Of a stretch of 64,000 bases of DNA, positions 4,742 through 55,858 are shown piece after piece. The first letter of the stretch is position 1. Each line of letters starts with the position of its first letter. The translations under genes and the position numbers were made by a program. A model generated the notes under the pieces. That model had not been told where the DNA came from, made no database searches, and worked only from the letters and a program-made list of their open reading frames with translations. This DNA is from Clostridia bacterium (GTDB lineage Bacteria > Bacillota > Clostridia > Oscillospirales > CAG-272): positions 7,033 through 71,032 of the forward strand of contig JAFTLQ010000006.1 in assembly GCA_017455905.1 (NCBI GenBank), read 5' to 3'.

Positions 4742-4748
4742 ATATGAC

Positions 4749-5765: not shown

Positions 5766-5783
5766 GAGTTTCAATGTACCTTC

Positions 5784-5957: not shown

Positions 5958-6030
5958 ACCCGTCCGTCTACGGTACGTGTATGATAGTGTATGCTCGCTG
6001 TTCACTTTTGTAAATATTCAATGAATCGTA

Positions 6031-6083
6031 TTGACATAACAGTCTACATGTGGTAGACTATATACGTCTACAAGCATTAGACG
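6031..6083 (+). promoter_or_regulatory. Sigma-A promoter overlapped by two BlaI/CopY-type operator palindromes
   Basis: TTGACA(6031)-17-TAGACT; palindromes agtctac-atgtg-gtagact (6041-6059) and cgtcta-caagcat-tagacg (6065-6083). Confidence 0.75.
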
Positions 6084-6094
6084 GAGGATTTTTT

Positions 6095-6457
6095 ATGAAT
6101 GAAGTTAGACTTGGTGTTATAGAATCGAGATTTGCTGATATCGTTTGGGAGAAGGCGCCGCTTACAACCGCAGAGCTTATTAGGCTTTGCGAGGCAGAGT
6201 TCGATTGGAAGCGCACCACTACATATACCGTATTAAAAAGGCTTTCCGAACGCGGAATTTTCAAGAACGATAACGGAACTGTTACGGTTTTGATTTCAAA
6301 AGACGAGTTTTATTCTATGCAAAGCGAAAAGGTTGTCAAAGAAAGCTTTGGAGGTTCGCTCCCTGCGTTCATAGCTGCATTTACTTCAAGGCAAAACTTG
6401 AGTGATGACGAGATTGCAGAAATCAGAGCCATCATTGAAAACATGAAAAGGAGTTAA
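6095..6457 (+). CDS. BlaI/MecI/CopY family repressor
   Basis: WKRTTTYTVLKRL..RG and FGGSLPAFIAAF; start moved to the ATG at 6095 behind GGAGG. Confidence 0.92.
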   Translation: MNEVRLGVIESRFADIVWEKAPLTTAELIRLCEAEFDWKRTTTYTVLKRLSERGIFKNDNGTVTVLISKDEFYSMQSEKVVKESFGGSLPAFIAAFTSRQNLSDDEIAEIRAIIENMKRS

Positions 6458-6459
6458 CG

Positions 6460-40426: not shown

Positions 40427-41506
40427 ATGAAACGAATCATCGCCCTGCTTCTATGCGTTGCCTGCCTGTTTACGGTCATCTCCTGCGGGAGCGCGTATCC
40501 CCCCGTCGAGAGCACCGAGGAGGAGCAGCGCACCGTGATGACGCTCACCCTTGAAGGGAAGAGCTACGAGGTCAAATACGAGCTGTACCGCGCCTTTGCC
40601 CTTATGTATCGGGACGAGATGGCGGAGGGCGTCAGCGACCCGTGGAGCGACGATGCGCTGGTCGACGCGCTGCATGCACGCGTCTGTGAGCAGATCTATG
40701 AGATCTATGCGACGCTGGCGCTTTGCGAGACGGTGGGCATCGACCTCTACGATAAAGAGACCGACGATACCGTCGAGGAATACATCCGCTTGAGCATTGA
40801 GGGGGATGACTACTTTGAGGGTCTCGGCTCGTACGACGCGTACCTTGCCGCGCTCAAGGAGGATTATCTCAACTATGCCGTCGCCGATCTGCTGTACCGC
40901 TACAGCATCGGTCAGGATGCGCTGTATACGTATTATATGGGAACGTATGATTACATTACCGACACGTATAAGGACAGCGCCTTGACCGTGACCGACGAAA
41001 AGGTCAACGTTTTTTACGCCGCCGACGATACGGCACGCGTCATGCTCATCTATCTGTCGCATCAGGTCTACTCCGATGCCGAGGCACGTCTCACGCGCTC
41101 CACGCTCCTTGCCGAGCTGGGAGACGGCGGCGAGGCCGCCATGGCCGATTGGCTGCTCCGCCATACGGCGACGTCCGAGCAGATCACCCGCGGCGAGATC
41201 CTCTCGCCGTACACCCTTGACGATCTCGTCTACGCCGACGTCACCGAGGCAGCACTCGCTCTCGGGGTCGGTGAAATGAGCGAGCTGATTCCCGTGTCGG
41301 GCGACGACGTCTACGGCTACTACCTCGTCTACCGTATGGATAAGCCGGCCTCGTACCTTGAGGACAACCGCTCCGACGTACGCGATACCTACCTCCTGCA
41401 CGAGATTGGCAAGATCTTTTCGAGCACAAAGGACGCCCTGCGCGACAGCCGCACCGACGCCCCCCTGCTTGCCACGCTGGACATCGCCACCATGTCGATG
41501 GATTGA
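40427..41506 (+). CDS. Hypothetical lipoprotein, SurA/parvulin-like (degenerate)
   Basis: VISC lipobox; ALALGVGEMSELI...YGYYLVYR resembles a parvulin C-terminus. Confidence 0.65.
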   Translation: MKRIIALLLCVACLFTVISCGSAYPPVESTEEEQRTVMTLTLEGKSYEVKYELYRAFALMYRDEMAEGVSDPWSDDALVDALHARVCEQIYEIYATLALCETVGIDLYDKETDDTVEEYIRLSIEGDDYFEGLGSYDAYLAALKEDYLNYAVADLLYRYSIGQDALYTYYMGTYDYITDTYKDSALTVTDEKVNVFYAADDTARVMLIYLSHQVYSDAEARLTRSTLLAELGDGGEAAMADWLLRHTATSEQITRGEILSPYTLDDLVYADVTEAALALGVGEMSELIPVSGDDVYGYYLVYRMDKPASYLEDNRSDVRDTYLLHEIGKIFSSTKDALRDSRTDAPLLATLDIATMSMD

Positions 41507-41563
41507 CGTCCCCACCCACCGAGCGGCGCGGCCGCTCGGTGGCAAAAGCCCTTCGTTATATGA

Positions 41564-41603
41564 GTCGACGTAGCTCAGCCGGACAGAGCAACCGCCTCCT
41601 AAG
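41564..41603 (+). pseudogene. 5' half of disrupted host tRNA-Arg(CCT) (attL)
   Basis: gtcgacg-ta-gctc-agccggaca-gagc-a-accgc-ctCCTaa, then an abrupt switch to AT-rich DNA. Confidence 0.92.
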
Positions 41604-41692
41604 GAAACACTCTATCCGTCATATATCACTAAATATGGTATATAATAGAGCAAATATACACCATATATTGTGTTTTGTCAACATAAAAAATC

Positions 41693-41717
41693 AAATCGGT
41701 ATAAAAATCGGTATAAA
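41693..41717 (+). repeat. Tandem AAATCGGTATAAA, putative integrase arm sites of the left end
   Basis: Two copies at 12-bp period; share GGTAT with the right-end repeats at 51495-51537. Confidence 0.6.
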
Positions 41718-41762
41718 TTTTATAATTTTTGTTCCGTTTAATAACTTTCAAAACGTTAAAAT

Positions 41763-41839
41763 CTTTCCGTAGCGTAATCGGATAACGCAATCGCCTCCTA
41801 AGCGATAGACTGTGGGTTCAATTCCCGCCGGAAAGGCCA
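41763..41839 (+). tRNA. Complete island-borne tRNA-Arg(CCT)
   Basis: Acceptor ctttccg/cggaaag, D arm gcgt/acgc, anticodon arm atcgc-ctCCTaa-gcgat, T arm gtggg-ttcaatt-cccgc, G discriminator, CCA. Confidence 0.93.
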
Positions 41840-41840
41840 A

Positions 41841-41930
41841 AAAGAGATTGTTCGCAAGAGCAATCTCTTTATTTTTTTGCTTTCCATAGGAATTACTTTT
41901 CGGAGGCGTTGCGTTTAGCATTGACTTTTT
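41841..41930 (+). repeat. ~90-bp terminator+promoter module, copy 1
   Basis: aaagagattgttcgcaagagcaatctcttt...gcattgactttt; TTGACT(41921)-17-TATAAT; near-identical to 42366. Confidence 0.9.
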
Positions 41931-41972
41931 TATTCTTAACGTGTATAATTGTATTGTAAAGGAGTTGATTCT

Positions 41973-42344
41973 ATGAAAAAAATACAAACTATGAATGGTT
42001 TATTGAAGGATGTTTTTAATTCTCCAAAGAATTTTATTTTATTTCCATTTGCAATTATCGGTTGTGTGTTTATTGTTATTTTCTATGTCTGCTGTCCGTT
42101 TTATATGCTTGCGGAGTTGTTTGTTAATGAGTTACACTCTATAATCAAAGCAGATGGCGAAAATGATTCTAACGGCGCACAAGTAGTAAAAAATCTAATC
42201 GGGTTTGGCTTTGTTGTTATGTTTAACTTTTTGAGAAGTATTCTTGCTATTTTGCTTGCAATAGGTTATTTTATGACATCGGTTGCTTTTACTATATCTT
42301 CTATTGGAAAGTTAAAGAATAATCCATTCGCATACTCTATATAA
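41973..42344 (+). CDS. Hypothetical membrane protein
   Basis: AAGGAG RBS, ATG at 41973; two long hydrophobic segments. Confidence 0.7.
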   Translation: MKKIQTMNGLLKDVFNSPKNFILFPFAIIGCVFIVIFYVCCPFYMLAELFVNELHSIIKADGENDSNGAQVVKNLIGFGFVVMFNFLRSILAILLAIGYFMTSVAFTISSIGKLKNNPFAYSI

Positions 42345-42365
42345 AATACTAATGAAAAAATTACA

Positions 42366-42453
42366 AAGAGATTGTTCGCAAGAGCAATCTCTTTATTTTT
42401 TTGCTTTCCGTTCGAATAACTTTTCGGAGGCGTTGCGTTTTGCATTGACTTTT
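42366..42453 (+). repeat. ~90-bp terminator+promoter module, copy 2
   Basis: Matches 41841; TTGACT(42445)-17-TATAAT(42468). Confidence 0.9.
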
Positions 42454-42477
42454 CCTTTTGAAAGATTTATAATATAG

Positions 42478-42681
42478 GCATACCACATTTCTTTTTCAAT
42501 TGAATAATAAGTATTGCTCGCTTTTTAATGTTTGCTATGAAGGTATAATTTCGGTAGAATTATACCTAATCCGTTTATGATTCCTTTATGGCAAACGTGA
42601 GCGAAAAAAGAAGTGTGGTAGCTTGTGAAAGGGTATAATCTGCGGATGCCGCTTTCGCAAGAGGGCGGCATTCTTATTTTG
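42478..42681 (+). ncRNA. Candidate structured ncRNA (long rod plus terminator)
   Basis: Own promoter; nested helices 42481-96/42605-20, 42515-21/42597-603, 42530-43/42583-96; terminator 42645-42680. Confidence 0.6.
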
Positions 42682-42776
42682 TGCTAATGAACTAAATACG
42701 TGCAATATAAAAGCCGTTGGAAACAAATACTCGTTGTTTTCACGGCTTATTTTGTTTTTTGGGGATAGGAAAAGTT

Positions 42777-43313
42777 ATGGAAACTAAATCGTGTTGCTTT
42801 ATAGGTCATCGAACAATAAGGGATAAAGAAACAATTGAAAAACGATTGATAGAGAAAGTGACAACTCTGATAAAAGAAGGGGTGGACACCTTTTATTTTG
42901 GTAGCCGAAGCCGATTTGATGACTTGGCTTGGGAAGTCGTATCTAAGCTCAAAGAAGAATATCAAGAAATTAAAAGAATCTACGTTCGCTCGTCTTACGC
43001 TTACATAGATGATTCTTACAAGAATTATTTATTGGAATCTTATGAAGATACATATATGCCCGAAGGTGTTGAAAATGCAGGGGCTGCTTCTTATGTAGAA
43101 CGTAATCAAGCTATGATAAATTCAAGTGATGTTTGTGTTTTCTATTATGATGAAAATTATTTGCCGGCACGAAGAAAACAATCAAGACGTGCGCTGTCGG
43201 ATTATCAACCTAAAAGTGGAACAAAAATAGCTTTTGATTACGCTACTAAAAAAGGAAAGAAAATAATAAATATCGCAAAGGAACAAGATGGCAAAGGCGA
43301 AGAAAATAGTTAA
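42777..43313 (+). CDS. SLOG / DUF1273 (YspA-like) family protein
   Basis: SCCFIGHR, FYFG..SRFD, RNQAMIN.SD, SGTKIAFDYA. Confidence 0.8.
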   Translation: METKSCCFIGHRTIRDKETIEKRLIEKVTTLIKEGVDTFYFGSRSRFDDLAWEVVSKLKEEYQEIKRIYVRSSYAYIDDSYKNYLLESYEDTYMPEGVENAGAASYVERNQAMINSSDVCVFYYDENYLPARRKQSRRALSDYQPKSGTKIAFDYATKKGKKIINIAKEQDGKGEENS

Positions 43314-43731
43314 GCACACATTATTATCTCTTGGCGTTGTAGGTATTATAATTTCACTTTTAATAGGCTTGGGATTGCTATTTGATAAGAATAATCCAAC
43401 TTATGAAAGCGTTCCATACACAGTTGAAGAACCGAAAGTATATGTGACCAAATACGGAGATTGTTATCATAGTTATGATTGTTCTTATTTGCACTCATCA
43501 ATGATAGCAAAAGGAAAGGACAAAGCAAGAGAACAAGGATATAGGGCTTGTAGCAAATGTAACGGCGTTGCAAATGGACTGATAGAGGTAACGTACTATA
43601 AACAAGTCAAAAAGGATATGACCAATGACATCATATCAAGTTCGATTATTTGGGGTGTGATTATAGGTGGAATCACATATACTTTTATCTATAAAAAAAT
43701 TGCACATAATAAGAACGTAAGAGTCGGATAG
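43288..43731 (+). CDS. Membrane protein with small Cys/His metal-binding (Ada-like) domain
   Basis: VYVTKYGDCYH..DC..L...GYRACSKC between two TM helices. Confidence 0.7.
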   Translation: MAKAKKIVKHTLLSLGVVGIIISLLIGLGLLFDKNNPTYESVPYTVEEPKVYVTKYGDCYHSYDCSYLHSSMIAKGKDKAREQGYRACSKCNGVANGLIEVTYYKQVKKDMTNDIISSSIIWGVIIGGITYTFIYKKIAHNKNVRVG

Positions 43732-43874
43732 GGATATTTCGGCTCTTTTTATTTGTAAACTTTTTTCAATAGGGTTCAAATGTCCCAACTTTTACCCATT
43801 TGACGGTTTACTTTACCCACGATAAGTGTTATAATTATATTATGGATTATTATAACAATGAAAGGAGTTAACTT

Positions 43875-44861
43875 ATGTTCTCTCAAAATGCAACCCGTAT
43901 AAAACTTTTGAAGATATGGGAAATTCTATGCCAAGAAACCGATGAAGAGCATCCAATGGAGTCATTGACTTTAATTGAGAAACTTGCTGAAATGGGTATT
44001 CCCTGCACGAGAAAAACTCTTTATACAGATATACAAATTCTTAATGATTGTGGTTACGAGATTATCTGCTCTCGAAAAAAGAAGAACGAATACTACGTTA
44101 TTGATAGAAGTTTTGATTTGCCTGAGTTACATATACTCTTGGATGCCGTACAAGCGGCAAGCTTCATTACGCCTAAAAAGACAAAAGAATTTGTAAACAA
44201 GATAGCGGCTTTAGCAGGTAGTAGAAGTGGCGAAGTTATAAAAAGGAATATCGTTGCTTTTAATACGACGAAGAATACCAATGAAGCCATCTATTATTCT
44301 ATAAATGAAATAGCAACAGCGATAAACAAAAAGAAAAAAATAGAATTTGTTTACTTTGATTATGATGCCGATTACAAGAAGGTTTATAGAAAAGATGGGG
44401 CTAAATATGTTGTAAATCCTTATGCTACAATCTTTTCAGACGATAACTACTATTTGCTCGGATATAACGACAAATATAAAACAATTACACACTATCGTGT
44501 AGATAGAATGGAACACGTAAAGATGATTGAAGATGAATTAGTTCCCTTGTCTGACGATAAAGTATTTGACGTTAGAAAACATAAGAAAGAGTTGTTTGGA
44601 ATGTTTACGGGCAACGAGGAAAAGGTTTCTTTCGTTATAGATGGCAATATGTTGGATGTTGTATTTAGTAAGTTCGGTAGTGATATTAAATTGAAGAAGA
44701 TTGATGATGGTCATTATTCTTTTACAGCCGAAGTCCAAATAAGCCCGATATTCTTTGGGTGGTGTTGTGCTTTTGGCGAAAGGCTGAAAGTTGTAGCACC
44801 GGATAGCGTAATTGAAAAGATAAAAGAACACGTAAAAACGATAACAAATATGTATGAGTAA
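43875..44861 (+). CDS. WYL-domain transcriptional regulator (paralog 1)
   Basis: N-terminal wHTH (RKTLYTDI), VNPYA...NYYL...HYRVDRM, WCX-like tail. Confidence 0.9.
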   Translation: MFSQNATRIKLLKIWEILCQETDEEHPMESLTLIEKLAEMGIPCTRKTLYTDIQILNDCGYEIICSRKKKNEYYVIDRSFDLPELHILLDAVQAASFITPKKTKEFVNKIAALAGSRSGEVIKRNIVAFNTTKNTNEAIYYSINEIATAINKKKKIEFVYFDYDADYKKVYRKDGAKYVVNPYATIFSDDNYYLLGYNDKYKTITHYRVDRMEHVKMIEDELVPLSDDKVFDVRKHKKELFGMFTGNEEKVSFVIDGNMLDVVFSKFGSDIKLKKIDDGHYSFTAEVQISPIFFGWCCAFGERLKVVAPDSVIEKIKEHVKTITNMYE

Positions 44862-44881
44862 ATATCGGAGGAAAACTTGTT

Positions 44882-45547
44882 ATGATGATATGCCCTTTGA
44901 GTGTATTTGAAGAATTAAAGGATAAGCCCGAAAAGGAAATAAGGACGGCTATTCGTGGCTATAAGAATCAAATAGGACGATTAAAAAAGATACTTGAAAA
45001 TCCCGATTTTGAAGAGAATATGTGTCCTTCTCACGACTTACAACTGCAAATGAATAGAGAGTATTTGCAAAACGCAATTATGGCTCTGATAAGTGCAGGA
45101 TTTGAATATCAACCAAGCAAAAGCGAAGAAAAGTCAGACTTGTTTAACGAACGTTTGGAAGATTTAATGCAAATTGAATTTAACGTGGGTGGTTTTTTCA
45201 GTACACACGAAAGATACATTATTAAATTCGACGAAACGGACGAAGCGTTGTTCACGTATGACGTTGGTTTAGGTTATGATAGCGAAGTTGTTAGAAAAAC
45301 CATTTCAAAGCAAGAGTGCATTAAAGAATTAAAAGACTTGTATATGGGCGAGTGGAAACGCAAGTATTGGGCAGATGTGTTAGACGGAATACAATGGGAA
45401 GTTAAGTTATGGTTCTACCACAATAATCAAAAGACTTTCTATGGTAGCAACGCTTTCCCTTTTAGCTATGAGAAATTGAAAGAACTTTGTGAAATGTGGT
45501 GTCTTGATATTGAAGCAGAAATAAACGATGGAGAGGTAAAAAAATGA
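44882..45547 (+). CDS. Hypothetical protein
   Basis: GGAGG RBS; continuous operon-like spacing. Confidence 0.7.
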   Translation: MMICPLSVFEELKDKPEKEIRTAIRGYKNQIGRLKKILENPDFEENMCPSHDLQLQMNREYLQNAIMALISAGFEYQPSKSEEKSDLFNERLEDLMQIEFNVGGFFSTHERYIIKFDETDEALFTYDVGLGYDSEVVRKTISKQECIKELKDLYMGEWKRKYWADVLDGIQWEVKLWFYHNNQKTFYGSNAFPFSYEKLKELCEMWCLDIEAEINDGEVKK

Positions 45548-45930
45548 TTATAAAAAGAGAGTATGTAAGATTTATTGACTTGATAAATAGCGATAAAAAA
45601 GCAAAAGAAGTCTTTATAAAAGCTTTTGAAAGCTCCTATAAAGGCGAAACAAAAGAAAGAAAAGAAGAAATCTTTGGTATGTTGTCAACACAATGTTTGT
45701 ACCAAAGAGATATGGGTTGGTGTTTCAAAAATATAGGTGATTTGATTCAAGGATTTGAAAAATTAGATATAGAAGAACCATATAATAACGGAATGACATT
45801 TTCCAATGTAAACAAGGTAGAAATCGTTGAACGTGAAGATGATAGACTTGTTTTACACTTAATAAATATCTTTGATGGCGAAGAACGTATTGTTGCTATC
45901 AAAGAATTAGAAGCCGAAATTAACGAATAA
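45544..45930 (+). CDS. Hypothetical protein
   Basis: ATGA overlap with the previous gene; GAGG RBS. Confidence 0.65.
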   Translation: MIIKREYVRFIDLINSDKKAKEVFIKAFESSYKGETKERKEEIFGMLSTQCLYQRDMGWCFKNIGDLIQGFEKLDIEEPYNNGMTFSNVNKVEIVEREDDRLVLHLINIFDGEERIVAIKELEAEINE

Positions 45931-46022
45931 ATGCGAGATAAAATTTAGTTGCGACTATATTTTGTCTTGAAAAATTCATTTATATATGATACAATATAGG
46001 CATAACTTAAACGAGGTGTGTT

Positions 46023-46226
46023 ATGGTTAGTTATAAAAAGCTATGGAAACTTCTCATTGATAAGGAACTGTCTAAAAAAGAACTCGCTGAAAAAGCCGGT
46101 TTGAGTACGTACACTCTAACCAAGATGAACAAAGGCGATTCAGTCAAGTCTGATACGTTGGTTAAGATTTGTAAGGCTCTTAATTGCACGTTTGACGACA
46201 TTATGGAAATAGTTGAAGGAGAATAA
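46023..46226 (+). CDS. Cro/C1-type HTH regulator
   Basis: SYKKLWKLLIDK...LVKICKALNC..DIME; precedes hsdM. Confidence 0.9.
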   Translation: MVSYKKLWKLLIDKELSKKELAEKAGLSTYTLTKMNKGDSVKSDTLVKICKALNCTFDDIMEIVEGE

Positions 46227-46228
46227 CA

Positions 46229-47338
46229 ATGGCAAAGGCACAAAAGCAAGAAAAGACTATGGAAGCGGCTCTTTGGGAAGCGGCTAATAAATTACGTGGC
46301 GCAGTAGAACCTGCGGAATACAAGCACGTTGTTCTCAGCTTAATCTTCTTGAAATATGCAAGTGATAAGTTTGAAGAACGCAGACAAGAAATTATAGACG
46401 AAGGACACGGCGATTTTGTAGATAACGTTGCTTTCTACACGATGAAGAGTGTTTTCTATTTGCCGCCTGAATCTCGTTGGTCTTATATTATGGAACAGTC
46501 AAAGCAAAGCGATATTGCTTTGAAGATAGATACTGCTCTTTATACCATTGAAAAGAACAATGAATCTTTGAAAGGTGCTTTGCCGGATAACTATTATTCT
46601 CGTCTTGGACTTGATACGTCTAAACTCTCTTCTTTGCTCGATGAAATCAATAAGATTGAAATGGCAAAGGATAAAGAACAAGATATTATGGGTAGGGTGT
46701 ATGAATACTTCCTTTCTAACTTTGCTCTTCAAGAAGGTAAAGGTAAGGGAGAGTTCTATACTCCGAAATGTATCGTTAATTTGATTGCAGAACTTATCGA
46801 ACCTTATAAGGGAAAGATTTATGACCCTTGTTGTGGTTCGGGTGGTATGTTCGTTCAATCTATGAAGTTCGTACAAGCTCATAACGGAAACACTCGTGAA
46901 ATCGCTGTTTTCGGACAAGAAGCAACCAACACAACCTTGAAACTTGCTCGAATGAACTTGGCTATTCGTGGCATCAATGGAAATCTTGGTAAGAAAGCTG
47001 TAAGTACGTTTATGATACCGATAGAACTTACCGCAGACGCAATTGAACACTTGGGTAGCGACTTCTATCATATAAGACACATTTTTAACGCATTGAGAGA
47101 ACACAAAGAATTGCTTGAGCAACCTGACTATAAACGTCTGTATGACGAAGCTCAAGACTTCCTTTTCAGACACGCAGTTGAGTTTTCCGGTTGGAACAAA
47201 GACAGACGTGAATGGGGATATGATTGGATTGAATTTCTTGCCGATCTTAACAATTCCCACGATGATAATAATGAAAAATACTCCATAGAAACTGTGGATT
47301 CTTTTCTTGCGGAAAGAAGAAAAATTTGGAACTCATAA
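46229..47338 (+). pseudogene. hsdM: Truncated type I R-M methyltransferase (HsdM N-terminal ~260 aa) fused to an unrelated tail
   Basis: LWEAANKLRG, GEFYTP, YDPCCGSGGMF present; similarity ends near 47011 before the catalytic NPPF/Y motif; no hsdS or hsdR. Confidence 0.85.
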
Positions 47339-47467
47339 GAGACCTCTTTTTAGTGTGGTCTCTTATTTTTATTTTCGATTGAGAAGTACAAACTTTTGTA
47401 CTTGTGGTTGTTTACTTTTTCTACAATATATGATATAATATAAGATATTATGGGGAGGTGTAACTAT

Positions 47468-48469
47468 ATGGAATCCCAAAACAACGTAAGAATCAAAATG
47501 TTAAAGATATGGGAACTTCTCTGTCAAGAGACAGACGAAGATCATCCGATGGACACAATCACAATACTCGCTAAATTGAAGGAAATGGGGATCGTTTGCG
47601 ACAGACGTACCCTATATAATGACATAAAGATCCTGAATGACTGTGGTTATGAAATAATCTGCCGCCGTTCTCGGAATAACGAATATTTTGTTATTGACCG
47701 TAGCTTTGATTTGCCCGAATTACATATTCTTCTCGATGCTATTCAGGCAGCCGGATTTATTACAAAATCCAAAAGCAAGGTGCTGATAGATAAGGTTGCA
47801 AGTCTCGCAGGAAGTCGTAAAGGCGAAGTTCTCAAGAGAAACATTGTTGCCTTCAATACGACAAAGAACACCAATGAGGCAATTTACTATTCTATCAACG
47901 AGATTATTGAAGCTATCAAGCAACAGAAAAAGATAGCGTTCCTCTACTTCGATTATGACCATAAGCACAATAGAGTTTATCGCAAAGACGGGCACCATTA
48001 TGTAGTGAATCCTTTTGCAACGGTGTTCTCTAACGATAACTACTATCTTGTGTGTTATAACGACGTACACCGAACTATCACTCATTATCGTATTGACAGA
48101 ATGGATAAGGTTATAATCTTGCCTGATAAGCCCATTTCACCTTTGCCTGAAGGTCAAACTTTTAGCATTTCAAGACACAAGAAACAAGTCTTTGGAATGT
48201 ACACCGGAAACGAGGTTGAGGTCACATTTGTCATAGATAAAGAACTGATCGACGTTGTGTTTGAAAAGTTTGGAGAAAAGACAAAAATAATGCCCTACGG
48301 AGACGATAAATACCTGTTCAAAGCTGAAGTCCAAGTAAGCCCTGTATTTCTCGGTTGGGTATGTGCTTTTGGAAAGCGTTTGAAGGTAACTTCGCCCCAA
48401 AGCGTAGTTGATAGCATCCAAGCACATTTGGAAGAATTGAGACAAAATTACGAAACCAAAGGAGAATGA
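47468..48469 (+). CDS. WYL-domain transcriptional regulator (paralog 2)
   Basis: Colinear with 43875, with long identical blocks (VIDRSFDLPELHILLDA; KRNIVAFNTTKNTNEAIYYSINEI). Confidence 0.9.
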   Translation: MESQNNVRIKMLKIWELLCQETDEDHPMDTITILAKLKEMGIVCDRRTLYNDIKILNDCGYEIICRRSRNNEYFVIDRSFDLPELHILLDAIQAAGFITKSKSKVLIDKVASLAGSRKGEVLKRNIVAFNTTKNTNEAIYYSINEIIEAIKQQKKIAFLYFDYDHKHNRVYRKDGHHYVVNPFATVFSNDNYYLVCYNDVHRTITHYRIDRMDKVIILPDKPISPLPEGQTFSISRHKKQVFGMYTGNEVEVTFVIDKELIDVVFEKFGEKTKIMPYGDDKYLFKAEVQVSPVFLGWVCAFGKRLKVTSPQSVVDSIQAHLEELRQNYETKGE

Positions 48470-49131
48470 AAATGCCAAGAACTATTACTGTAAAAGGTGT
48501 AGGTGCAGTATCCGCCAAGCCTGATTTAATCGTTATTACAATGACTCTCGAAAACAAAGATATGGATTACGAAACTTCGGTTGATATGTCTGCAAAACAG
48601 ATTCAAGAACTTTGCTCTGCGCTTGTTCAAATTGGATTTGAACAGATAGATTTGAAGACAACGAGTTTCAACGTAAGCACCTCGTATGATAATGTGAAGG
48701 ATCGCAATGGCAATTACAAGAGAGTCTTCGATGGGTACGAATGTACACACCGTCTGAAGTTGGAATTTGACTTGGATATTTCCTTGCTTGGAAAGGTACT
48801 CGCAGCTATCGCTTCTTGCTCTGCTAACCCTGAACTTTCTATCGGATTTACTGTTAAAGAACCCTCTGCGGTAAGTGCCGAATTACTTAAGTCTGCTACT
48901 GCAAATGCAAAAGCAAAAGCAGAGATTCTTTGCGAGGCTTCGGGGGTAAAATTGGGCTCTTTGCTAACTATTGATTACAATTGGGGTGAACTCAATGTGT
49001 ATTCCACTACAAGATACGAAATGGAAGAAAAGTGTATGGCAATGCCTTGTGGCGGAATTGCCGATATGAATTTTGAACCTGACGATATAGACGTAAGTGA
49101 TACGGTAACATTCGTTTGGGAGATTGCATAA
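48466..49131 (+). CDS. SIMPL domain (DUF541) protein
   Basis: TITVKG.G.VSAKPD...A.ANAKAKAEIL..ASGVKLG...VTFVWEI. Confidence 0.85.
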   Translation: MKMPRTITVKGVGAVSAKPDLIVITMTLENKDMDYETSVDMSAKQIQELCSALVQIGFEQIDLKTTSFNVSTSYDNVKDRNGNYKRVFDGYECTHRLKLEFDLDISLLGKVLAAIASCSANPELSIGFTVKEPSAVSAELLKSATANAKAKAEILCEASGVKLGSLLTIDYNWGELNVYSTTRYEMEEKCMAMPCGGIADMNFEPDDIDVSDTVTFVWEIA

Positions 49132-49142
49132 GGAGGAGTTCA

Positions 49143-49769
49143 ATGGGAGTAACGCGAGAAACATTAGAAAACGGAAATGTATTAAAAGCACTTACTGCTT
49201 CTCCAACGCTGATTCAAGCATTGAAGGAGTACCGCATTTGGTGGGATGTTCGGAGAGAAACTTATGGTGATTATCTACAGGAAACGGATAAAATTTTCAC
49301 TCAAAACAACGGCAAAAACATTCACCCAAGCACGCTTTATGAATGGAACAAAAGAATCCTTAAAGCCGCCGGAATCGAGCATTATTCATTGCACAGTATT
49401 CGACACACGAATATCACTATGCAGATTGCCGCAGGAGTTCCTATTGTAACGGTATCTGCTCGTGCAGGACACGCTCGTGCAAGCACTACAACCGACACCT
49501 ATGCTCACTTCATTCGCAGTAGCGACGTCGCCGCAGCCGAAACGATAGATCACCTTTTCGATAACGGAGACCAACCCGATACCACCACAATAACGGAACC
49601 TCCCAAAAAGAAGGTTGAGCTCGTTCAATCCTTCAGAAAAGCGAAAGCTGAAATGGAGCGTTTAGGGATTGAAACCTATGACGAATATCTTGAATATTTG
49701 GAGTTCGTAGAAGCTACCAAAAGCAGAGGTAGTGGTCAGGGTGCAGACGGTGATACCGAGATGGACTGA
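49143..49769 (+). pseudogene. C-terminal fragment of a tyrosine recombinase/integrase
   Basis: HSIRHT (HxxR), AGH, DTYAH (catalytic Tyr); arm-binding, core-binding and first Arg regions absent. Confidence 0.85.
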
Positions 49770-49961
49770 ACCCATCAAAAAAAGAATGCACTCTTTGAAA
49801 AAAGGGTGCATTTTCTATTCAAATACGGTGCATAAATAATCGCATACGCATTGACAATTTGTTGATTTTATGGTATAATATTTATGCTGAAATTGGAATA
49901 GGAATTTAATATAGCATTCCAACGAGACGAACCTTTATTACAAGTGTGAATGGCACGATTT

Positions 49962-50005
49962 TGTACACCCGTGTACACCCTATTTTGTACACCCTTTGTA
50001 CACCC
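49962..50005 (+). repeat. Four direct TGTACACCC repeats, putative integrase arm sites
   Basis: Copies at 49962, 49972, 49986, 49997; 126 nt before a CTCCTAAG core. Confidence 0.85.
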
Positions 50006-50131
50006 GAAAGGCAAAAAGCAGGGCGAAAGTTACTTCAAATCACGCACAAAACGAAAGATATTTGACGAAAAATACGCCAAAAACCGCCTAAAATAAGCCA
50101 TTTTGAAGATAGACTCAAACACTTGAATAAA

Positions 50132-50175
50132 CTCCTAAGTTTCTGTTGTGAGTTCGATTCTCGCCGGGGAGGCCA
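50132..50175 (+). pseudogene. Orphan 3' half of a third tRNA-Arg(CCT)
   Basis: ctCCTaa-gtttc-tgtt-gtgag-ttcgatt-ctcgc-cggggag-g-cca, followed by terminator aagaccgc...gcggtctt. Confidence 0.85.
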
Positions 50176-50262
50176 TAAGACCGCTTTAATGCGGTCTTTT
50201 TCTTTTTTGTCACCAACAAAAAAGTTGGCTAAGATCACCTTAGCCAACTGTCACCTTGTTTA

Positions 50263-51339
50263 TTATGTTTTTTCGATTAAAAGCTCTCTCACCGCATTTA
50301 TTTCGGAATCTGCAAGCCCCAATGAACGCAAAAAATTTTCTGTTGCTGTTTGGTAGCTGTCACCGTAGGTAAGCAACTTCTCACAAAATTTACCCATAGC
50401 AATATAGTTCACATTATCATTCTGTTGTACGTATGCGCGAGATCGCTTACCTTGCGGCGAAAACGTGGTCATTTCATAACAATGCATAGCATCGGCAAAT
50501 CCAACGCCCAGCAGACAATGTAGCAGGAAAACGATCGTACCGGTTCTATCCGCGCCTGCGTTACAGTGCAAATACACAGGATAGTTTTCCGCTTTCCCAA
50601 GCACGCGGAATATATCGGGAATGTTTTTATTGCGCTCATCATTCGAAAAAATATTGTCATAAGTCGGCATCGGAAGCTTATAATACGGCAGCGAAGCGTC
50701 TAATTCATTCGCCGTTTGAACTGGTTTTTCCCCACTTTCCGTATAATAGCAATCGTCATCGCCCGTGACGCGGAGATCTATTTCCGAGCGGATTCCAAGC
50801 TCCTTTACCATGATCTTACGAACGCCGTCTGTCATGCGATACGTATTGTTCCAGCGATTGTTCAAATGCGTACCACGGTAAAACATACCGTATTTCACTT
50901 TGCCGCACGGTGTACTATAACCGCCTGCGTCTCTTACGTTTCTGGGTCCAAATCCCTCATCATCCATACACCTTAGCGGACGGACGATGCAGTTTTCAGT
51001 AACAAAGCTTATCCTCTCCGAACAAGCCTCTCCGTTTGTGGAAAACACCTGCGCGTAATATTTCGTATCAGGCAGCAGCGTAGCGAGATTGACCTTGTTG
51101 TCCTTAATAACCCGCTCCGCATACGGAGTAAGTGTTTCCAGCTTTGAAAAACGCAAGATACAGCCGTCTGCATCTCCTTCAAGATACAAATATGATTCCT
51201 GCTTATCCGCATCGCCTGACGGCGTGTTTTTCACCATTTCTGCGCTCACCTCAAAATCCATTTCAAGATATGCGCGAAGGGTGGGATGCAGGAGCGTCAC
51301 CACACTATCGATAGGTTTAAACACAATGCTATATGCCAC
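50263..51339 (-). CDS. Protein-tyrosine phosphatase-like protein
   Basis: NVRDAGG, EIDLR, P-loop HCNAGADRTG. Confidence 0.88.
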   Translation of the reverse strand: MAYSIVFKPIDSVVTLLHPTLRAYLEMDFEVSAEMVKNTPSGDADKQESYLYLEGDADGCILRFSKLETLTPYAERVIKDNKVNLATLLPDTKYYAQVFSTNGEACSERISFVTENCIVRPLRCMDDEGFGPRNVRDAGGYSTPCGKVKYGMFYRGTHLNNRWNNTYRMTDGVRKIMVKELGIRSEIDLRVTGDDDCYYTESGEKPVQTANELDASLPYYKLPMPTYDNIFSNDERNKNIPDIFRVLGKAENYPVYLHCNAGADRTGTIVFLLHCLLGVGFADAMHCYEMTTFSPQGKRSRAYVQQNDNVNYIAMGKFCEKLLTYGDSYQTATENFLRSLGLADSEINAVRELLIEKT

Positions 51340-51494
51340 AATAAAACTCCTTGGTTAGTAAGAAAAGATATTATCATTATAATTCCTTTCGCTTAAAAAA
51401 ACAAGGTGTTTTTTATTATTTATCAAATACCCTTAGAAGAAAATACGCGATCACTATCCATGCAGTTGTAGTGCTTAGATGAAAGCGTATCAAA

Positions 51495-51537
51495 TTGGCA
51501 TAGTTTTGGTATAATTTTTGGTATTAAAGTTGGTATT
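51495..51537 (+). repeat. Four TTGG(T/C)AT repeats, putative arm sites of the right end
   Basis: Copies at 51495, 51506, 51518, 51530; 122 nt before the attR core. Confidence 0.7.
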
Positions 51538-51659
51538 AGAAGCGAAAATTACTTGACGAAACGAACAAAAAGCCTTAAAATAGACGCATTTTAGGGCATA
51601 AAACGCACGAAAATCAAGAAAAATCGCATTTTTAACGCCACTTTTACGGTAGGAAAGCA

Positions 51660-51704
51660 CTCCTAAACGGTAGGTCGGAGGTTCGAATCCTCTCGTCGAC
51701 GCCA
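51660..51704 (+). pseudogene. Displaced 3' half of host tRNA-Arg(CCT) (attR)
   Basis: ctCCTaa-acggt-aggtc-ggagg-ttcgaat-cctct-cgtcgac-g-cca; cgtcgac pairs 7/7 with gtcgacg at 41564. Confidence 0.93.
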
Positions 51705-51729
51705 AAGGCAGCCGAAAGGCTGCCTTTTA
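51704..51729 (+). terminator. Terminator of the original tRNA gene
   Basis: aaaggcagcc-gaaa-ggctgccttt. Confidence 0.8.
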
Positions 51730-51825
51730 AGTAAAAAGGTATAGGAATTTATATTTTCACCACAGCCACCAAGCATAGGCGCAAAATGGAACCTATGCGG
51801 CTTATTATATAAAGAAAAAGACCGA

Positions 51826-52599
51826 CTTCCGTCGCTCGCTAACGTTGTTCTCCATAACGACGTTGAAAGCGTTGGATACGAAGCTTTCCATGGTTGCGGA
51901 CTTACAACAATTACATTTGGAAACGGCATTAAAAGCATTGACGAGTATGCTTTTAACGGAACTTACAACACCGTGGCTATACATATAGATTCAATTGCTA
52001 CGTGGTGCAATATTGACTTTGGAAGCAATTCACTTCCATACAACAAAAACTTGGTGATTGATGGCACTATTGTTAAAGACGTTGTGATTCCTGACGGCAT
52101 TACCGAAATAAAACCGTATGCGTTTTATTATTTTAAAAATATCGAAAGTGTTACATTAGGAAAAGACGTGACGAGCATCGGCGAATGGGCTTTCTATTTT
52201 TGTAACGGACTAAAGACGGTCGAATTTAACGAAGGTCTGTTATCAATCGAAGATTATGCGTTTGGTGCGTGCTCCGGTTTGACACAAATTATTTTTCCGG
52301 ACAGCTTACAGACGATCAAGGAAGGTGCGTTCAGCGGATGTAGCAGCCTTGCGTCGATTGTTTTGGGGCGCAAAATTACAACTATCGAAGCGTATGCTTT
52401 CAGCAGCTCATATCCTTGGCCGATATACTATCACGGCGCCTTCAGCGAGTTCAATGCAACGATAGGTAAAAACAATCAAAACTTGAACGTTGCAAAGCAA
52501 GGCATATACTATTATTCTTCAACAGAACCTACGGATACGAATTACACCTATTGGTATTATTCCGATGATGGCGTTCCAACACTTTGGCCAACGGAATAA
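51826..52599 (+). pseudogene. 5'-truncated BspA-type leucine-rich repeat protein
   Basis: Repeats such as VTSIGEWAFYFCNGL; LRR pattern continues upstream of the called GTG with no RBS or start. Confidence 0.75.
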
Positions 52600-52762
52600 A
52601 TCGAAAAAAGTCTGCGTCGCACGATGTACGCACAGACTTTGACTAACGACTTGGCGGCAGGCTATGCAATATAGCTTGTCGCCTTTTCTTTTTTCTTCTC
52701 TACATGTAACTTGCGAATGTAGGTTTTTTCATTTTTTAAAAGGTCGCCTATAAGGTCTTTTT

Positions 52763-52847
52763 TGTCCACCCGTTGTACACCCGCACGATATAAGACACCA
52801 CAAAATCGCCCGCACGCCGATAGCCGGGGCACGTATGAAAGCTCCTA
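52763..52847 (+). repeat. att-arm-like repeat, copy 1 (internally shortened)
   Basis: TGTCCACCC-gt-TGTACACCC...ggggcacgtatgaaagCTCCTA. Confidence 0.8.
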
Positions 52848-52974
52848 TTCTGTATCAATTTCTCACAAAAACACATACTATTTACGAGAAAATTCAAGTT
52901 TTTCTCACATCCCATTGACTAATCTCGTAAAATATGCTATAATTTATGAGAAAACAAGTTGCTTGGGAGTTTGT

Positions 52975-54021
52975 ATGAGAAAATTCAACTATACGGCATT
53001 AAAAAATATGAAGTGGGATTCCGAAATGATGGGATACGTTGCCATCATTCACGAAATGAAGGGTAAGCAGGTACTTTATCTTAGGCAAAAGCCCGAAACG
53101 CTTGACAAGCTTGTAGAAATCGCAAAGGTACAAAGCACCGAAAGCTCCAACGAGATCGAGGGAATCCGCACGACTAACACTCGCCTGAAGCAGCTTGTGT
53201 CAGAAAAAACAACACCAAAAAATCGTGACGAGCAAGAAATCGCCGGATATCGTGATGCGCTTGCCGTGATACACGAAAGCTTTGAATATATTCCTCTGAC
53301 AACGAATTATCTTTTACAGTTGCATAAAATTTTGTATAGCCATTCGGTAAAAGACGTTGGTGGAAAATTCAAAACGACACAGAATTATATCAGCGCAACC
53401 GACAGCGAGGGAAACCCATTCACCCTATTTACGCCGCCTGTGCCGTATGAAACACCCGATATGATATCGGAGCTTTGCGATGCGTTCAACCGCGCTATCG
53501 CAGAATGCGATGTTGACCCGCTTATACTCATACCCATCTTCATTCACGATTTTCTTTGTATCCACCCTTTCCTCGACGGAAACGGGAGAATGAGCCGCTT
53601 GCTCACAACGCTTCTCTTATACCGTAGTGGATATATGGTCGGCAAATATATTTCCTTAGAGGCAAAAATCGCAAAGAATAAAAATCTATATTACGACGCC
53701 TTGGAGCAATCACAAGTCGGTTGGCACGATGCGAGCGATGATCCCACACCTTTCGCTAAGTATTTGCTCGGTACGATCATATCCGCATATCGTGATTTTG
53801 AGGAGCGAATGGACATTGTTGGTGATAAAGATTCCGCTATGGATATCGTTACAAAAGCCGTTGCAACAAGGATAGGCAAATTCACAAAGGCGGATATTGC
53901 CGCTTTGTGTCCTTCCATCAGCGCAAGCTCTGTGGAAAGCTCACTAAAAAAATTAGTACGTAACGGTGTTGCTCGAAAACACGGAAACGGTAGAGCTACC
54001 TTCTACACAAGAAATATATGA
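52975..54021 (+). CDS. Fic family protein with C-terminal HTH
   Basis: HPFLDGNGRMSR; inhibitory-type SNEIEG; promoter TTGACT(52915)-17-TATAAT; ATG at 52975. Confidence 0.93.
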   Translation: MRKFNYTALKNMKWDSEMMGYVAIIHEMKGKQVLYLRQKPETLDKLVEIAKVQSTESSNEIEGIRTTNTRLKQLVSEKTTPKNRDEQEIAGYRDALAVIHESFEYIPLTTNYLLQLHKILYSHSVKDVGGKFKTTQNYISATDSEGNPFTLFTPPVPYETPDMISELCDAFNRAIAECDVDPLILIPIFIHDFLCIHPFLDGNGRMSRLLTTLLLYRSGYMVGKYISLEAKIAKNKNLYYDALEQSQVGWHDASDDPTPFAKYLLGTIISAYRDFEERMDIVGDKDSAMDIVTKAVATRIGKFTKADIAALCPSISASSVESSLKKLVRNGVARKHGNGRATFYTRNI

Positions 54022-54022
54022 G

Positions 54023-54137
54023 CGTCCACCCGCGGTACACCCACACAATATATAGCTCCGTGGAAATCACCCTCAACCACAAAACCTACCAAGCGTAAAA
54101 TCTGCATTTCCCTCGGATCTTACGCTTATTTTGCAAA
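54023..54137 (+). repeat. att-arm-like repeat, copy 2
   Basis: GTCCACCC-gc-GGTACACCC...agcgtaaaatctgcatttccc..ggat.ttacgctt.ttttgcaa shared with copy 3. Confidence 0.8.
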
Positions 54138-54142
54138 ACCTC

Positions 54143-54182
54143 TTGACTTGTGGCTAAATATAGTGTATAATTTAGCCACAAG
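54143..54182 (+). promoter_or_regulatory. TA operon promoter with 13-bp perfect operator palindrome
   Basis: TTGACT-17-TATAAT overlapped by cttgtggctaaat...atttagccacaag. Confidence 0.85.
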
Positions 54183-54212
54183 AGCATATAATAAAAACGG
54201 AGGTAAATCATA

Positions 54213-54470
54213 ATGACTATTATTCCTATGCGTGACTTAAAAGACACCGTTGAAATTGAAAGACGTTGCGCCGAAGCAGGCGGTCCCGTATTCGTTACTA
54301 AAAACGGTTACGGCAGACTTGTTGTAATGGATATTGAGTATTACGAGAAAACAATGAGCAAAATATATGAAGCCAAGCTTGTAAACGATGGACTTTCCGA
54401 TATCGAAAGCGGTAAAACCGTAGACGGCGACGCTGTAAGAGCAAGAATGGCCGAGAAGTATGGAGTTTGA
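54213..54470 (+). CDS. Phd/YefM family antitoxin
   Basis: IIPMRDL...PVFVTKNGYGRLVVMDIEYYE. Confidence 0.9.
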   Translation: MTIIPMRDLKDTVEIERRCAEAGGPVFVTKNGYGRLVVMDIEYYEKTMSKIYEAKLVNDGLSDIESGKTVDGDAVRARMAEKYGV

Positions 54471-54786
54471 GTATTCATATCGGTTTACAGAGAAGGCTGC
54501 GCAGGATTTTGACGAGATCCTGCGCTACATATCGGTTGACTTGGCAAATCCCGTTGCCGCGCAAAATCTTGGAAAAAAGATTTTTGAAAAAATTGACGTT
54601 GTAAGAGCCTTTCCGAATTCCGGTGCTCCTATTGAAAATGAGTTTTTATCTGATAAGACGGTGCGTAAATTGTTAGCGGATAATTACATTATTTACTACA
54701 AGGCACATTACGAAGAAAACATCATTTCAATCGTCCGTATCGTTTATGGCAAGCGTAATCTTGATGAAATTTTACGAGATATTTAG
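54460..54786 (+). CDS. RelE/ParE family toxin
   Basis: FTEKAAQDF..I..YI...NYIIYY...IVRIVYGKRN; overlaps the antitoxin gene. Confidence 0.9.
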   Translation: MEFEYSYRFTEKAAQDFDEILRYISVDLANPVAAQNLGKKIFEKIDVVRAFPNSGAPIENEFLSDKTVRKLLADNYIIYYKAHYEENIISIVRIVYGKRNLDEILRDI

Positions 54787-54824
54787 TTTTTCGTGCGGGC
54801 GAAATATAGAGTTTGATTTATATT

Positions 54825-54987
54825 TGTCCACCCGTTGTACACCCACACGATACAAACCACCACAAAAGATACCAACAAACACACAACATACGAGCGTAAA
54901 ATCTGCATTTCCCGCGGATTTTACGCTTGTTTTGCAAGAAAATCGCCCACGCGCAGATAGCCCGGGGCACGTATGAAAATTCCTAAG
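54825..54987 (+). repeat. att-arm-like repeat, copy 3 (longest, ends in TTCCTAAG)
   Basis: Contains both the copy-1 and copy-2 blocks; arm-to-core gap 135 nt. Confidence 0.8.
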
Positions 54988-55007
54988 GGGTAGTTACAGG
55001 TAGATTT

Positions 55008-55066
55008 CAAATCATGAAGCCGTAAGGCTTCAATTCATGGCGGCTTGCCGTCAATTCATCAATTCG
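55008..55066. repeat. Short REP-like cluster (CAATTCAT units with mini-hairpins)
   Basis: tgaagcc-gtaa-ggcttca, tggcggc-tt-gccgtca, repeated caattcat. Confidence 0.5.
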
Positions 55067-55227
55067 CACGTGTGTTCACAAATGCAGTGCTTGTTAAATC
55101 TTAATTAAAGACACCAAAATTGATTGACAAAAGTAACTCAAAAGCACTTATGGCAAGATTTCCATAAGTGCCTTTTGCTACCTTCAGGGAGATGCTGAAA
55201 ATCAGCAAATACAATGTTTCAAACAAT

Positions 55228-55431
55228 TCATACCGTGAGTAGTGGAGAAGCGTGTTTGCTTTCCCCTTCGCTTTTGGAATCAAATTCGGGAAAACAAAGC
55301 AAGTAGTAGTCACACTCGTCGCAACAACATTCAAAGCCTTGCTCTCCGTTGCCAAGACACACATTAGGCTCTCCCGGAGTCAGTTCTACTTCGGTAATAT
55401 CGATTACCTTTTTGGGAATAACTTTACTCAT
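55228..55431 (-). CDS. Small Cys-rich hypothetical protein
   Basis: GAGGTG RBS; CLGNG...ECCCDECDYYLLC. Confidence 0.65.
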   Translation of the reverse strand: MSKVIPKKVIDITEVELTPGEPNVCLGNGEQGFECCCDECDYYLLCFPEFDSKSEGESKHASPLLTV

Positions 55432-55451
55432 ACACTCACCTCATCAGCATA

Positions 55452-55612
55452 CAAAAAAGTGCGCCCCAAAAGGAACGCACCGAAAAAATGCATCCCCTTA
55501 GTTTGTTGTCACACAAATGCTCTCCCAACGAAGGTATGAGGAAAAGGAGAAAACACTTTTTACCAAAAGTATTTTCCCTTCGTTGGTTAGAACATATGCA
55601 ATTTGTGTGACG
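55452..55612 (-). ncRNA. Candidate structured ncRNA/leader (rod plus terminator)
   Basis: Promoter TTGACA(55646)-17-TAAAAT; helices 55508-18/55601-11, 55525-34/55577-86; terminator 55453-55480. Confidence 0.55.
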
Positions 55613-55799
55613 AGAATATTTTACCATAGTTCTGCCGATTTGTCAATATAGCTTGAAAATGTTACAAAAATATTCTTGCATTGATGTCTTTAATTTAGTC
55701 AGTGCTTGCAAAGAAAAGTGGACGAGGAGTTTTAAACACTCTTCGTCCTTTTCCTTGATAAGCACTGACTTAATGAAAGATACTAAAGCTGCATACGTG

Positions 55800-55843
55800 C
55801 CCTCTCACCCGCTGTCGCGGGAGCTCTCCCGTGGGGCGAGCCT
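55800..55843. repeat. Single REP-like palindromic unit
   Basis: ccctctcacccgc-tgtc-gcgggagctctccc-gt-ggggcgagcc double hairpin at the AT-rich/backbone boundary. Confidence 0.45.
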
Positions 55844-55858
55844 AACGCTTGAAAGGGG

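Follow-up and report, generated by a model that had tools for sequence, protein, structure and literature searches.

Classical genomic islands that target transfer RNA (tRNA) genes carry the displaced part of the gene, so that the gene is regenerated at one of the two junctions (PMC4383910). A different arrangement, tRNA-dependent lysogeny, has been described for the actinobacteriophages Fionnbharth, LeBron, Gaia, and others (Guerrero-Bustamante and Hatfull, mBio 2024, PMC10865867). Its defining features are a tyrosine integrase, a bacterial attachment site (attB) that falls within a tRNA gene, a short core from which this gene is not reconstructed, and a cognate tRNA of the phage without which lysogens are not viable; its authors describe it as previously unrecognised and ask how frequent it is elsewhere (PMC10865867). 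Prophage Lj965 of Lactobacillus johnsonii, as cited there, likewise leaves its tRNA gene unrebuilt and encodes a cognate tRNA. Here we analysed a 64,000-nucleotide (nt) stretch of a Clostridia bacterium contig, JAFTLQ010000006.1 (hereafter the window), in which an island splits the resident tRNA-Arg(CCT) gene and carries a whole tRNA-Arg(CCT) of its own. We consider it likely that the block at 41603–51659 belongs, in decayed and mosaic form, to a family of tRNA-Arg(CCT) islands that do not restore their target and bring their own tRNA as a substitute.

The split tRNA-Arg(CCT) gene and the tRNA carried by the island

The 5ʹ half of the resident gene is located at 41564–41602 on the forward strand, as are all features below unless stated otherwise, and starts 57 nt past the stop codon of a host open reading frame (ORF) rich in guanine and cytosine (G+C). 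It reads GTCGACG...CCTCCTAA and consists of the acceptor strand GTCGACG, the D arm, the 5ʹ strand of the anticodon stem (ACCGC), and the loop CTCCTAA. The right core and the 3ʹ half (51660–51704) read CTCCTAA...CGTCGACGCCA and comprise the variable loop, the T arm, and CGTCGAC-G-CCA, after which there is a G+C-rich terminator hairpin, GGCAGCC-GAAA-GGCTGCC, with a T run (51707–51728). The two ends of the island thus share the 7 base pairs (bp) CTCCTAA of the anticodon loop, at 41596–41602 on the left, which is the presumed crossover segment, and at 51660–51666 on the right, and the forward strand of the locus holds four such copies altogether (41596, 41795, 50132, and 51660). For in silico excision, a script deleted 41603–51666 by coordinates and the product was submitted to ARAGORN, which recognised the rejoined halves as a 77-nt tRNA-Arg(cct) with an acceptor stem paired at 7/7 positions, intact D and T arms, and a single C31.A39 mismatch. 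Five relatives, three of them from the same genus, possess an intact tRNA-Arg(CCT) gene with G39 and with D, anticodon, and T arms closely similar to these.

Neither junction is a tRNA gene, because ARAGORN detected two tRNAs in the window, only one of them in the island region, at 41763–41839, and an Rfam search of 41000–56500 (E ≤ 1) returned no tRNA match besides this one. After the core, the left junction (attL) reads GGAAACACTCTATCCG..., which is non-tRNA sequence rather than a tRNA 3ʹ half. The G+C content steps down exactly at 41600, from 0.55–0.63 before to 0.29–0.47 after, and remains low to about 55800, past the end of the 3ʹ half at 51704. Logan contigs of sequencing run X1, possibly from the same sample as the assembly of the window, span 41318–41870 and 49717–52300 with 0 differences and therefore bridge both junctions. 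The first-pass annotation, made from the letters alone, had claimed that the two halves rejoin at CTCCTAA into a tRNA, that the gene is rebuilt at neither junction, and that a whole tRNA with the same anticodon lies inside; all three claims held, its coordinates for the halves and the whole tRNA were right throughout, and the run X1 contigs speak against the misassembly for which it had allowed. Past the right edge of the island span that it gave (41564–51704), foreign DNA continues to about 55800.

The whole tRNA-Arg(CCT) at 41763–41839 has the same orientation as the split gene, scored 65.8 bits against Rfam family RF00005, and is identical to the commonest tRNA of the island family described below, being present in 11 other loci; a terminator-like hairpin with a T run is located behind it (41841–41878). 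Between the left core and this tRNA is the left arm (41603–41762, Pʹ-like), which contains no tRNA sequence. It carries a CTATCCG box nine bases past the core (41612–41618) and two CGGTATAA repeats at a 12-bp spacing (41697–41704 and 41709–41716), 46 nt from the whole tRNA. At the other end, the right arm (P-like) carries three TGGTATWA repeats, also spaced by 12 bp (51507–51538), in the same orientation as those of the left arm and 122 nt from the right core. Across the 1.25-Mb assembly of this genome, pairs of GGTATWA repeats were found only at the two ends of the island, and we regard these runs as putative arm-type integrase sites of one phage-type attachment site (attP) split by integration. 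The right arm of the window recurs in the metagenome contig L088, where it joins another tRNA-Arg 3ʹ half, indicating that 51659/51660 is a true element boundary.

Several further observations concern the left end. A YTATCC box 8–12 nt past the core, present in the attL of the window (41581–41618) and in most family loci, is the inverted complement of GGATA in the tRNA D loop; as the latter is located about 15 nt before the core, the two make an inverted repeat around the attL crossover, which is possibly a tRNA-mimicking core-type integrase site. The left arm also contains AT-rich palindromes followed by T runs. Behind the tRNA, a 109-nt direct repeat (41841–41949 and 42365–42473, 87% identity), comprising the terminator and a promoter-like TTGACT-17-TATAAT, flanks a 131-amino acid (aa) ORF without Pfam match. 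A contig of run X5 omits 41889–42414, so this ORF cassette is polymorphic between strains.

A family of islands with the same layout

To look for similar loci, 185,579 species-representative genomes were scanned for two GGTATWA repeats followed, after 60–90 nt, by CCTCCTAAG. The scan returned 54 loci, mostly from Christensenellaceae and unclassified Clostridia bins of gut samples; this count includes one chance match in a coding region (L034) and is a lower bound for the family, since one further element described below, MT835493.1, carries GGTAATG repeats outside the pattern. In 48 of the 54 loci, the 5ʹ half of a tRNA-Arg gene, with the core at its end, was located 70–112 nt upstream of the repeats and on the same strand, a feature that the scan pattern did not demand, and the loci with this half had the YTATCC box after the core. 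The six others were the chance match, two loci with no upstream sequence (L039 and L040), and L028, L030, and L035. Behind the repeats, ARAGORN found a whole tRNA-Arg(cct) in 42 of the 54 loci. The 12 loci lacking it were cut by the locus end (three), were the chance match (one), had a re-split tRNA (five), or were otherwise disrupted (three: L018, L052, and L066). In L016, L027, L044, L045, and L049, the element tRNA breaks off at its core, where the arm of a next element follows. With these counts of split and whole genes, the suggestion of the first-pass annotation that a non-phage clostridial island follows the strategy of tRNA-dependent lysogeny gained support.

The 42 whole element tRNAs represent 19 distinct sequences, in the alignment of which 18 of 21 pairs show compensatory double changes, indicating that they are maintained, selected genes. 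The left arm and tRNA of the window type recur in 12 places, where they adjoin nine distinct acceptor 5ʹ strands; insertion thus seems to have taken place repeatedly and independently. Intact integrases beside a split and a whole tRNA-Arg, which the annotation had proposed to search for, do exist: a clade of tyrosine integrases of about 480–500 aa, 58–100% identical to the L054 protein and encoded convergently just after the element tRNA, occurs in 18 loci, and its members are full length (470–547 aa) in eight of them, with PF00589 and SAM-like domains and a match to phrog_1. No integrase was found near the element in the window subtype. Two bounded copies of this subtype were observed. The copy in L014 (oriented positions 1629–6948) is 5.3 kb long and contains a ClpB-like ATPase gene and no integrase, and that in L065 (oriented positions 3724–5292) is 1.6 kb long and, likewise lacking an integrase, has only a small ORF and a YpsA fragment besides the arms and the tRNA. 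In both, the right-end 3ʹ halves mismatch the left-end 5ʹ halves, as expected in nested arrays.

Elements with both ends and matching halves were found in two other records. MT835493.1, a 57-kb faecal scaffold, gave the best integrase match in a phage collection (57.5%). Its low-G+C element of 35,463 bp is bounded by a tRNA-Arg 5ʹ half and the matching 3ʹ half. Both of its arms carry GGTAATG repeats, and it encodes an intact integrase and a tRNA-Arg(cct) of its own; in silico excision restored a tRNA-Arg(cct). Its ten largest ORFs matched PHROGs families for a helicase, an SbcC-like protein, a PAPS-reductase-like protein, and a DNA polymerase (phrog_1268), and no structural phage family was found among these ten. 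Although filed as ‘Bacteriophage sp.’, the record (L070/L071) represents a scaffold of bacterial DNA in which host flanks border a 35.5-kb island, and it may be mislabelled. In CP091723.1, a complete Christensenella chromosome, the tRNA of an earlier element is interrupted by an element of 8,745 bp that has GGTATTA repeats at either end, and rejoining gave a tRNA-Arg(cct). A search of this chromosome for CTCCTAA plus a T arm yielded a displaced half and a single whole gene, the latter carried by an element. The outermost displaced 5ʹ half there (L069, reverse strand, turned locus 1824–1867) is mutated, with the core CCTTCTAA and the D loop CTCGGCAGG, and the displaced 3ʹ half has lost one T-arm base. 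Dead halves thus decay, but those of the window are nearly clean, which suggests that its insertion is recent.

Other searches were negative. The family pattern had 0 matches in a viral contig collection, and no right end was found within 32 kb for the sister element in G061. L030 was rejected as a circular element, because a chromosomal SDR gene region precedes its core.

Mosaic interior and foreign DNA beyond the 3ʹ half

The cargo that the island has in common with its sister elements extends from 41949 to 47012. It begins with a small ORF (from 41949), followed by genes for a YpsA/SLOG protein (42717–43313), a WYL regulator (43875–44861), and a helix-turn-helix (HTH) protein (46023–46226), all three by Pfam, and by an hsdM ORF (46229–47338), the 5ʹ part of which is shared with the sisters and which ends after 116 of 311 Pfam profile positions. 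By blastn, 41580–47012 is 75–92% identical to L043 and L036, and the match stops at 47012 inside hsdM. The host flank and the left part of the island are present in contigs of run X5, which stems from another study, whereas 47012–50146 is missing from them; here too, the contig departs from the window sequence after 47012. Then follow genes for a second WYL regulator and a SIMPL/DUF541 protein (47450–49131, Pfam) not present in the sister elements; this segment had no blastn match in the family loci beyond 68% WYL paralogy and is absent from run X5. The island is a mosaic, its homology to the sister elements ending inside hsdM at 47012.

Next to this segment, a 217-aa ORF (49116–49769) encodes the C-terminal fragment of a tyrosine integrase, which covers only positions 82–167 of the 172 of PF00589 and matches phrog_1. 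Its identity to the L054 family integrase is 25%, and it is the sole integrase-like match in its own assembly. Between it and a third core there are four TGTACACCC repeats (49962–50005); this motif has nine matches in the window compared with 0.44 expected. The repeats end 127 nt before the core, a geometry like that of the GGTATWA repeats before 51660, and they are presumed to be arm-type sites of a second kind of element. The third core, CTCCTAA, is followed by the 3ʹ half of another tRNA-Arg(CCT) with the acceptor strand CGGGGAG and CCA (50132–50175), and then by a hairpin and a T run. As read from the sequence, this 3ʹ half fits neither the 5ʹ half at 41564 nor the anticodon stem of the island tRNA. 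The integrase fragment was taken by the first-pass annotation as the truncated enzyme of the island itself, a view that now seems improbable, given the different repeats, the own core, and the third 3ʹ half beside it. Because the adjoining repeats are TGTACACCC whereas the island ends in GGTATWA, the fragment is probably a remnant of a second element and not the maker of the island junctions. The module at 49116–50205, with its integrase fragment, repeats, core, 3ʹ half, and terminator, resembles a classical attP/attR, and it may be of the classical restoring kind, nested in the island. Between this module and the right arm, a gene for a tyrosine phosphatase family protein is located on the reverse strand (50263–51339; PF13350, 3.5e-21).

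Beyond the resident 3ʹ half, Pfam identified a BspA-type leucine-rich repeat (LRR) fragment (51973–52599), a Fic protein (52762–54021), and a Phd/ParE pair (54213–54786). A module of 45–110 nt containing TGTCCACCC-N2-TGTACACCC was observed at 52761, 54024, and 54823, each time upstream of a gene, and a long hairpin at 55678–55789 gave only weak scores with miRNA families in Rfam. At 54825–55020 there is a relic junction, in which a TGTCCACCC/TGTACACCC pair (54825–54844) is followed 137 nt later by a decayed core, TTCCTAA, at 54980. The decayed tRNA 3ʹ half at 54980–55020 resembles the intact 3ʹ half in L088 (540–980, reverse strand). L088 has in common with the window not only the right arm but also a nearly identical terminator (GGCAGYCGAAAGGCTGCC), with a different 3ʹ half between the two, and no other occurrence of a terminator hairpin of this type was found in the data searched. 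When 51740–55800 was compared with the arm before 50132, only TGTMCACCC pairs were found in common and no whole arm. A single history joining this region and the L088 terminator could not be fitted; conceivably, the present 3ʹ half and its terminator derive from an older restoring element with TGTMCACCC repeats.

Proposed mechanism, rival explanations, and comparison with known systems

We propose that islands of gut Clostridia insert into the anticodon loop of tRNA-Arg(CCT) by tyrosine-integrase recombination at a core of 7–9 bp, (C)CTCCTAA(G), which would be too short to rebuild the target gene. As no copy of the displaced 3ʹ half is carried, the target would be left as two dead halves at the island ends. 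A complete tRNA-Arg(CCT) with its own terminator, about 160 nt inside the left end and oriented as the target, would presumably take over the decoding of AGG codons, and we infer that the island tRNA of the window is expressed and complements the loss. The host genome is a metagenome-assembled bin of 40 contigs and 1.25 Mb with 55.8% completeness; the one Arg(cct) gene detected in it is of foreign origin, and AGG codons occur in 498 of 881 long host ORFs in a crude ORF set.

A number of results weigh against this proposal. For the host, the limited completeness means that another Arg(CCT) gene is possible, AGG is rare (2.76 per 1000 codons), and a tRNA-Arg(TCT) gene exists. For the element, no cognate integrase was found in the assembly, and the sole fragment is located in a module with other repeats; the window copy can therefore, by inference, no longer excise by itself. 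The right arm of the window was found in none of the five genomes sharing its left arm, so the two ends may stem from different elements. The relic junction at 54825–55020, to the right of the supposed host 3ʹ half, and the terminator common to L088 and the window behind different 3ʹ halves both misfit a simple model. A simple forward-strand scan from the junction to the tRNA found no sigma-70-like promoter and a lone TATAAT at 41721–41726; a host tRNA promoter driving the island tRNA is speculation only, neither promoter having been found by the simple scan.

The search for an island-free site adds to these points. The annotation had asked for relatives with an intact gene at this place, and none were found, the flanks not being syntenic in the relatives examined. 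The left-flank DNA matched relatives over the tRNA part only, the flanking proteins had no match near the five intact tRNA-Arg(CCT) genes of relatives, and 14 loci with homologues of the left-flank gene (33–41% identity) contained no tRNA within the locus. A metagenome scan for the exact 5ʹ half gave 0 contigs, and no contig of runs X1, X5, X9, and X13 joins 41602 to 51667; small shares of X9 and X13 gave only tRNA-like or island pieces of other organisms. These searches do not show that an empty site is absent. Finally, the signature CCTCCTAAGN{7,11}TATCC was found in 12 of 401 genomes of the host order, compared with 16 control matches in 15 genomes. It was dropped as a prevalence estimate for being too unspecific; its non-enrichment in the host order fits a foreign, lower-G+C origin of the islands and gives no support by itself.

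The best-surviving rival explanation, which we consider unlikely, is that the island tRNA is real and typical of the family but does not mainly complement, the host reading AGG by tRNA-Arg(UCU). The tRNA would then serve chiefly as a portable landing pad (a fresh attB for re-integration or for the next element), as a spare resistant to anticodon nucleases, or as an aid to island genes. The presence of tRNA-Arg(TCT) and the rarity of AGG suit this explanation, and the use of element tRNAs as targets in the five re-cut loci named above suits a landing pad. Defence-type cargo (Type I restriction–modification and WYL genes, with Fic and ParE nearby) would agree with a spare, and an anti-defence idea is also raised in the discussion of PMC10865867. 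However, in 42 of 42 whole element tRNAs the anticodon is that of the destroyed gene, which makes complementation the simplest explanation. Help for island genes is opposed by their codon use, as AGG is barely more frequent in island ORFs than in the host (4.0 vs. 2.8 per 1000) and AGA, which the island tRNA does not read, is favoured.

The signs of decay in the window lend themselves to another explanation, in which a classical restoring island lost the 3ʹ half by rearrangement and the whole tRNA is a chance passenger from an earlier host. The truncation of hsdM at 47012, the integrase fragment, the third tRNA half, and the relic junction are all compatible with such an accident, and the fragment with its TGTACACCC repeats, core, and 3ʹ half does look like a classical attP/attR. 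Nevertheless, the order of 5ʹ half, core, YTATCC box, repeats, and whole tRNA recurs in 48 of the 54 loci, including elements with intact integrase and a complete chromosome, which independent decay would not yield, and we regard an accident of this kind as very improbable. Hardly credible is an assembly or binning artefact, in which tRNA-like repeats led to a chimeric contig while the real genome keeps an intact host tRNA: the genome is a bin in many contigs, run X5 contigs break at cores, and many family loci are at contig ends, but the run X1 contigs, possibly from the same sample, cross both junctions unchanged, the host flank and the left part of the island have similar depths in run X5 (13.1 and 10.1), and the same architecture is found in the complete chromosome CP091723.1, the record name of which suggests long reads.

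Beyond insertion with a substitute tRNA, the family may be read as a ‘tRNA relay’, in which every newcomer would destroy the tRNA-Arg(CCT) gene that it meets, be it that of the host or one brought by an earlier island, and put its own in place. The new copy, a few hundred bases off, would be the only such tRNA of the cell, so that the newest island would be hard to lose; it would also be the landing pad for the next island, and islands would come to nest like Russian dolls. Integrase-less miniatures keeping only arms, tRNA, and cargo, the left-arm type of the window among them, would be satellites moved in trans by the integrases of full members sharing the GGTATWA repeats. We put this full reading, nesting and satellites included, forward tentatively, as a real possibility that we would sooner doubt than assert.

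Among gut Clostridia, the family was found in no fewer than 53 species-level genomes, with human, chicken, ruminant, and rabbit samples according to the record titles. Island finders that expect a regenerated tRNA and a displaced fragment at the ends would misplace or miss such islands. A carried tRNA would make the integrated state self-stabilising and renew the attachment site, which would explain pile-ups of islands. The compact module of attP, tRNA, and integrase is a possible integration tool for poorly tractable gut anaerobes, comparable to mycobacterial systems. For the genome of the window there is a small practical point, as its one detected tRNA-Arg(CCT) is foreign. A limited literature search found no account of such islands in Clostridia.

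Compared with known systems, the islands resemble classical Islander-type islands in the tyrosine integrase, the attB in a tRNA gene, the crossover in the anticodon loop of 7 nt, and the pile-ups at one tRNA. Williams reportedly described, in 2002, subfamilies of integrases whose crossover lies in this loop. Unlike the classical islands, the attL junction here is no tRNA and a separate whole gene is supplied, and newcomers nest inside the tRNA of the previous element. Prophage Lj965 is similar, going by its citation in PMC10865867 only, in being a Firmicutes element that disrupts a tRNA gene and carries a potentially complementing tRNA. In contrast to the islands, it has the terminase, portal, head, and tail genes of a complete siphovirus-type prophage, and its four tRNA genes (Ser, Glu, Tyr, and Phe as annotated), about 12 kb from the integrase, include no tRNA-Arg. 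We therefore rejected Lj965 as a relative of the islands, being a different kind of element without tRNA-Arg.

The closest likeness is to tRNA-dependent lysogeny (PMC10865867). In both cases attB overlaps a host tRNA gene, the halves in the window rejoining to tRNA-Arg(cct); the core is short (7–9 bp in the islands, 8–17 bp in the phages) and no tRNA is rebuilt at attL or attR; a cognate tRNA is borne by the element, in the window and in 42 of 54 loci; and putative arm-type repeats flank the core. As for the tyrosine integrase, the window has the 217-aa fragment only, whereas sister elements have full-length PF00589 proteins beside the tRNA. The differences begin with the hosts, which are gut Clostridia and not Actinobacteria, and with the target, which is tRNA-Arg(CCT), cut in the anticodon loop, and not one of those in the table of that paper (Lys, Ile2, and Leu). 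Moreover, the islands examined carry defence and other cargo. Among the 12 island ORFs of the window, Pfam found no capsid, portal, terminase, or tail family, and among the ORFs of L054 tested, only the integrase and an S24 repressor/UmuD-like protein were matched, so that the ORFs tested in the members examined gave no sign of a temperate phage. Some island copies, such as the 5.3-kb and 1.6-kb copies in L014 and L065, have no integrase at all, and the island tRNA directly adjoins attP and serves as the target of the next element. The phages of PMC10865867 have been proven to require their tRNA, whereas for the islands such a requirement is putative. What the two have in common is the logic of tRNA-dependent lysogeny, which at tRNA-Arg(CCT) is apparently found in cargo and defence islands rather than in phages.

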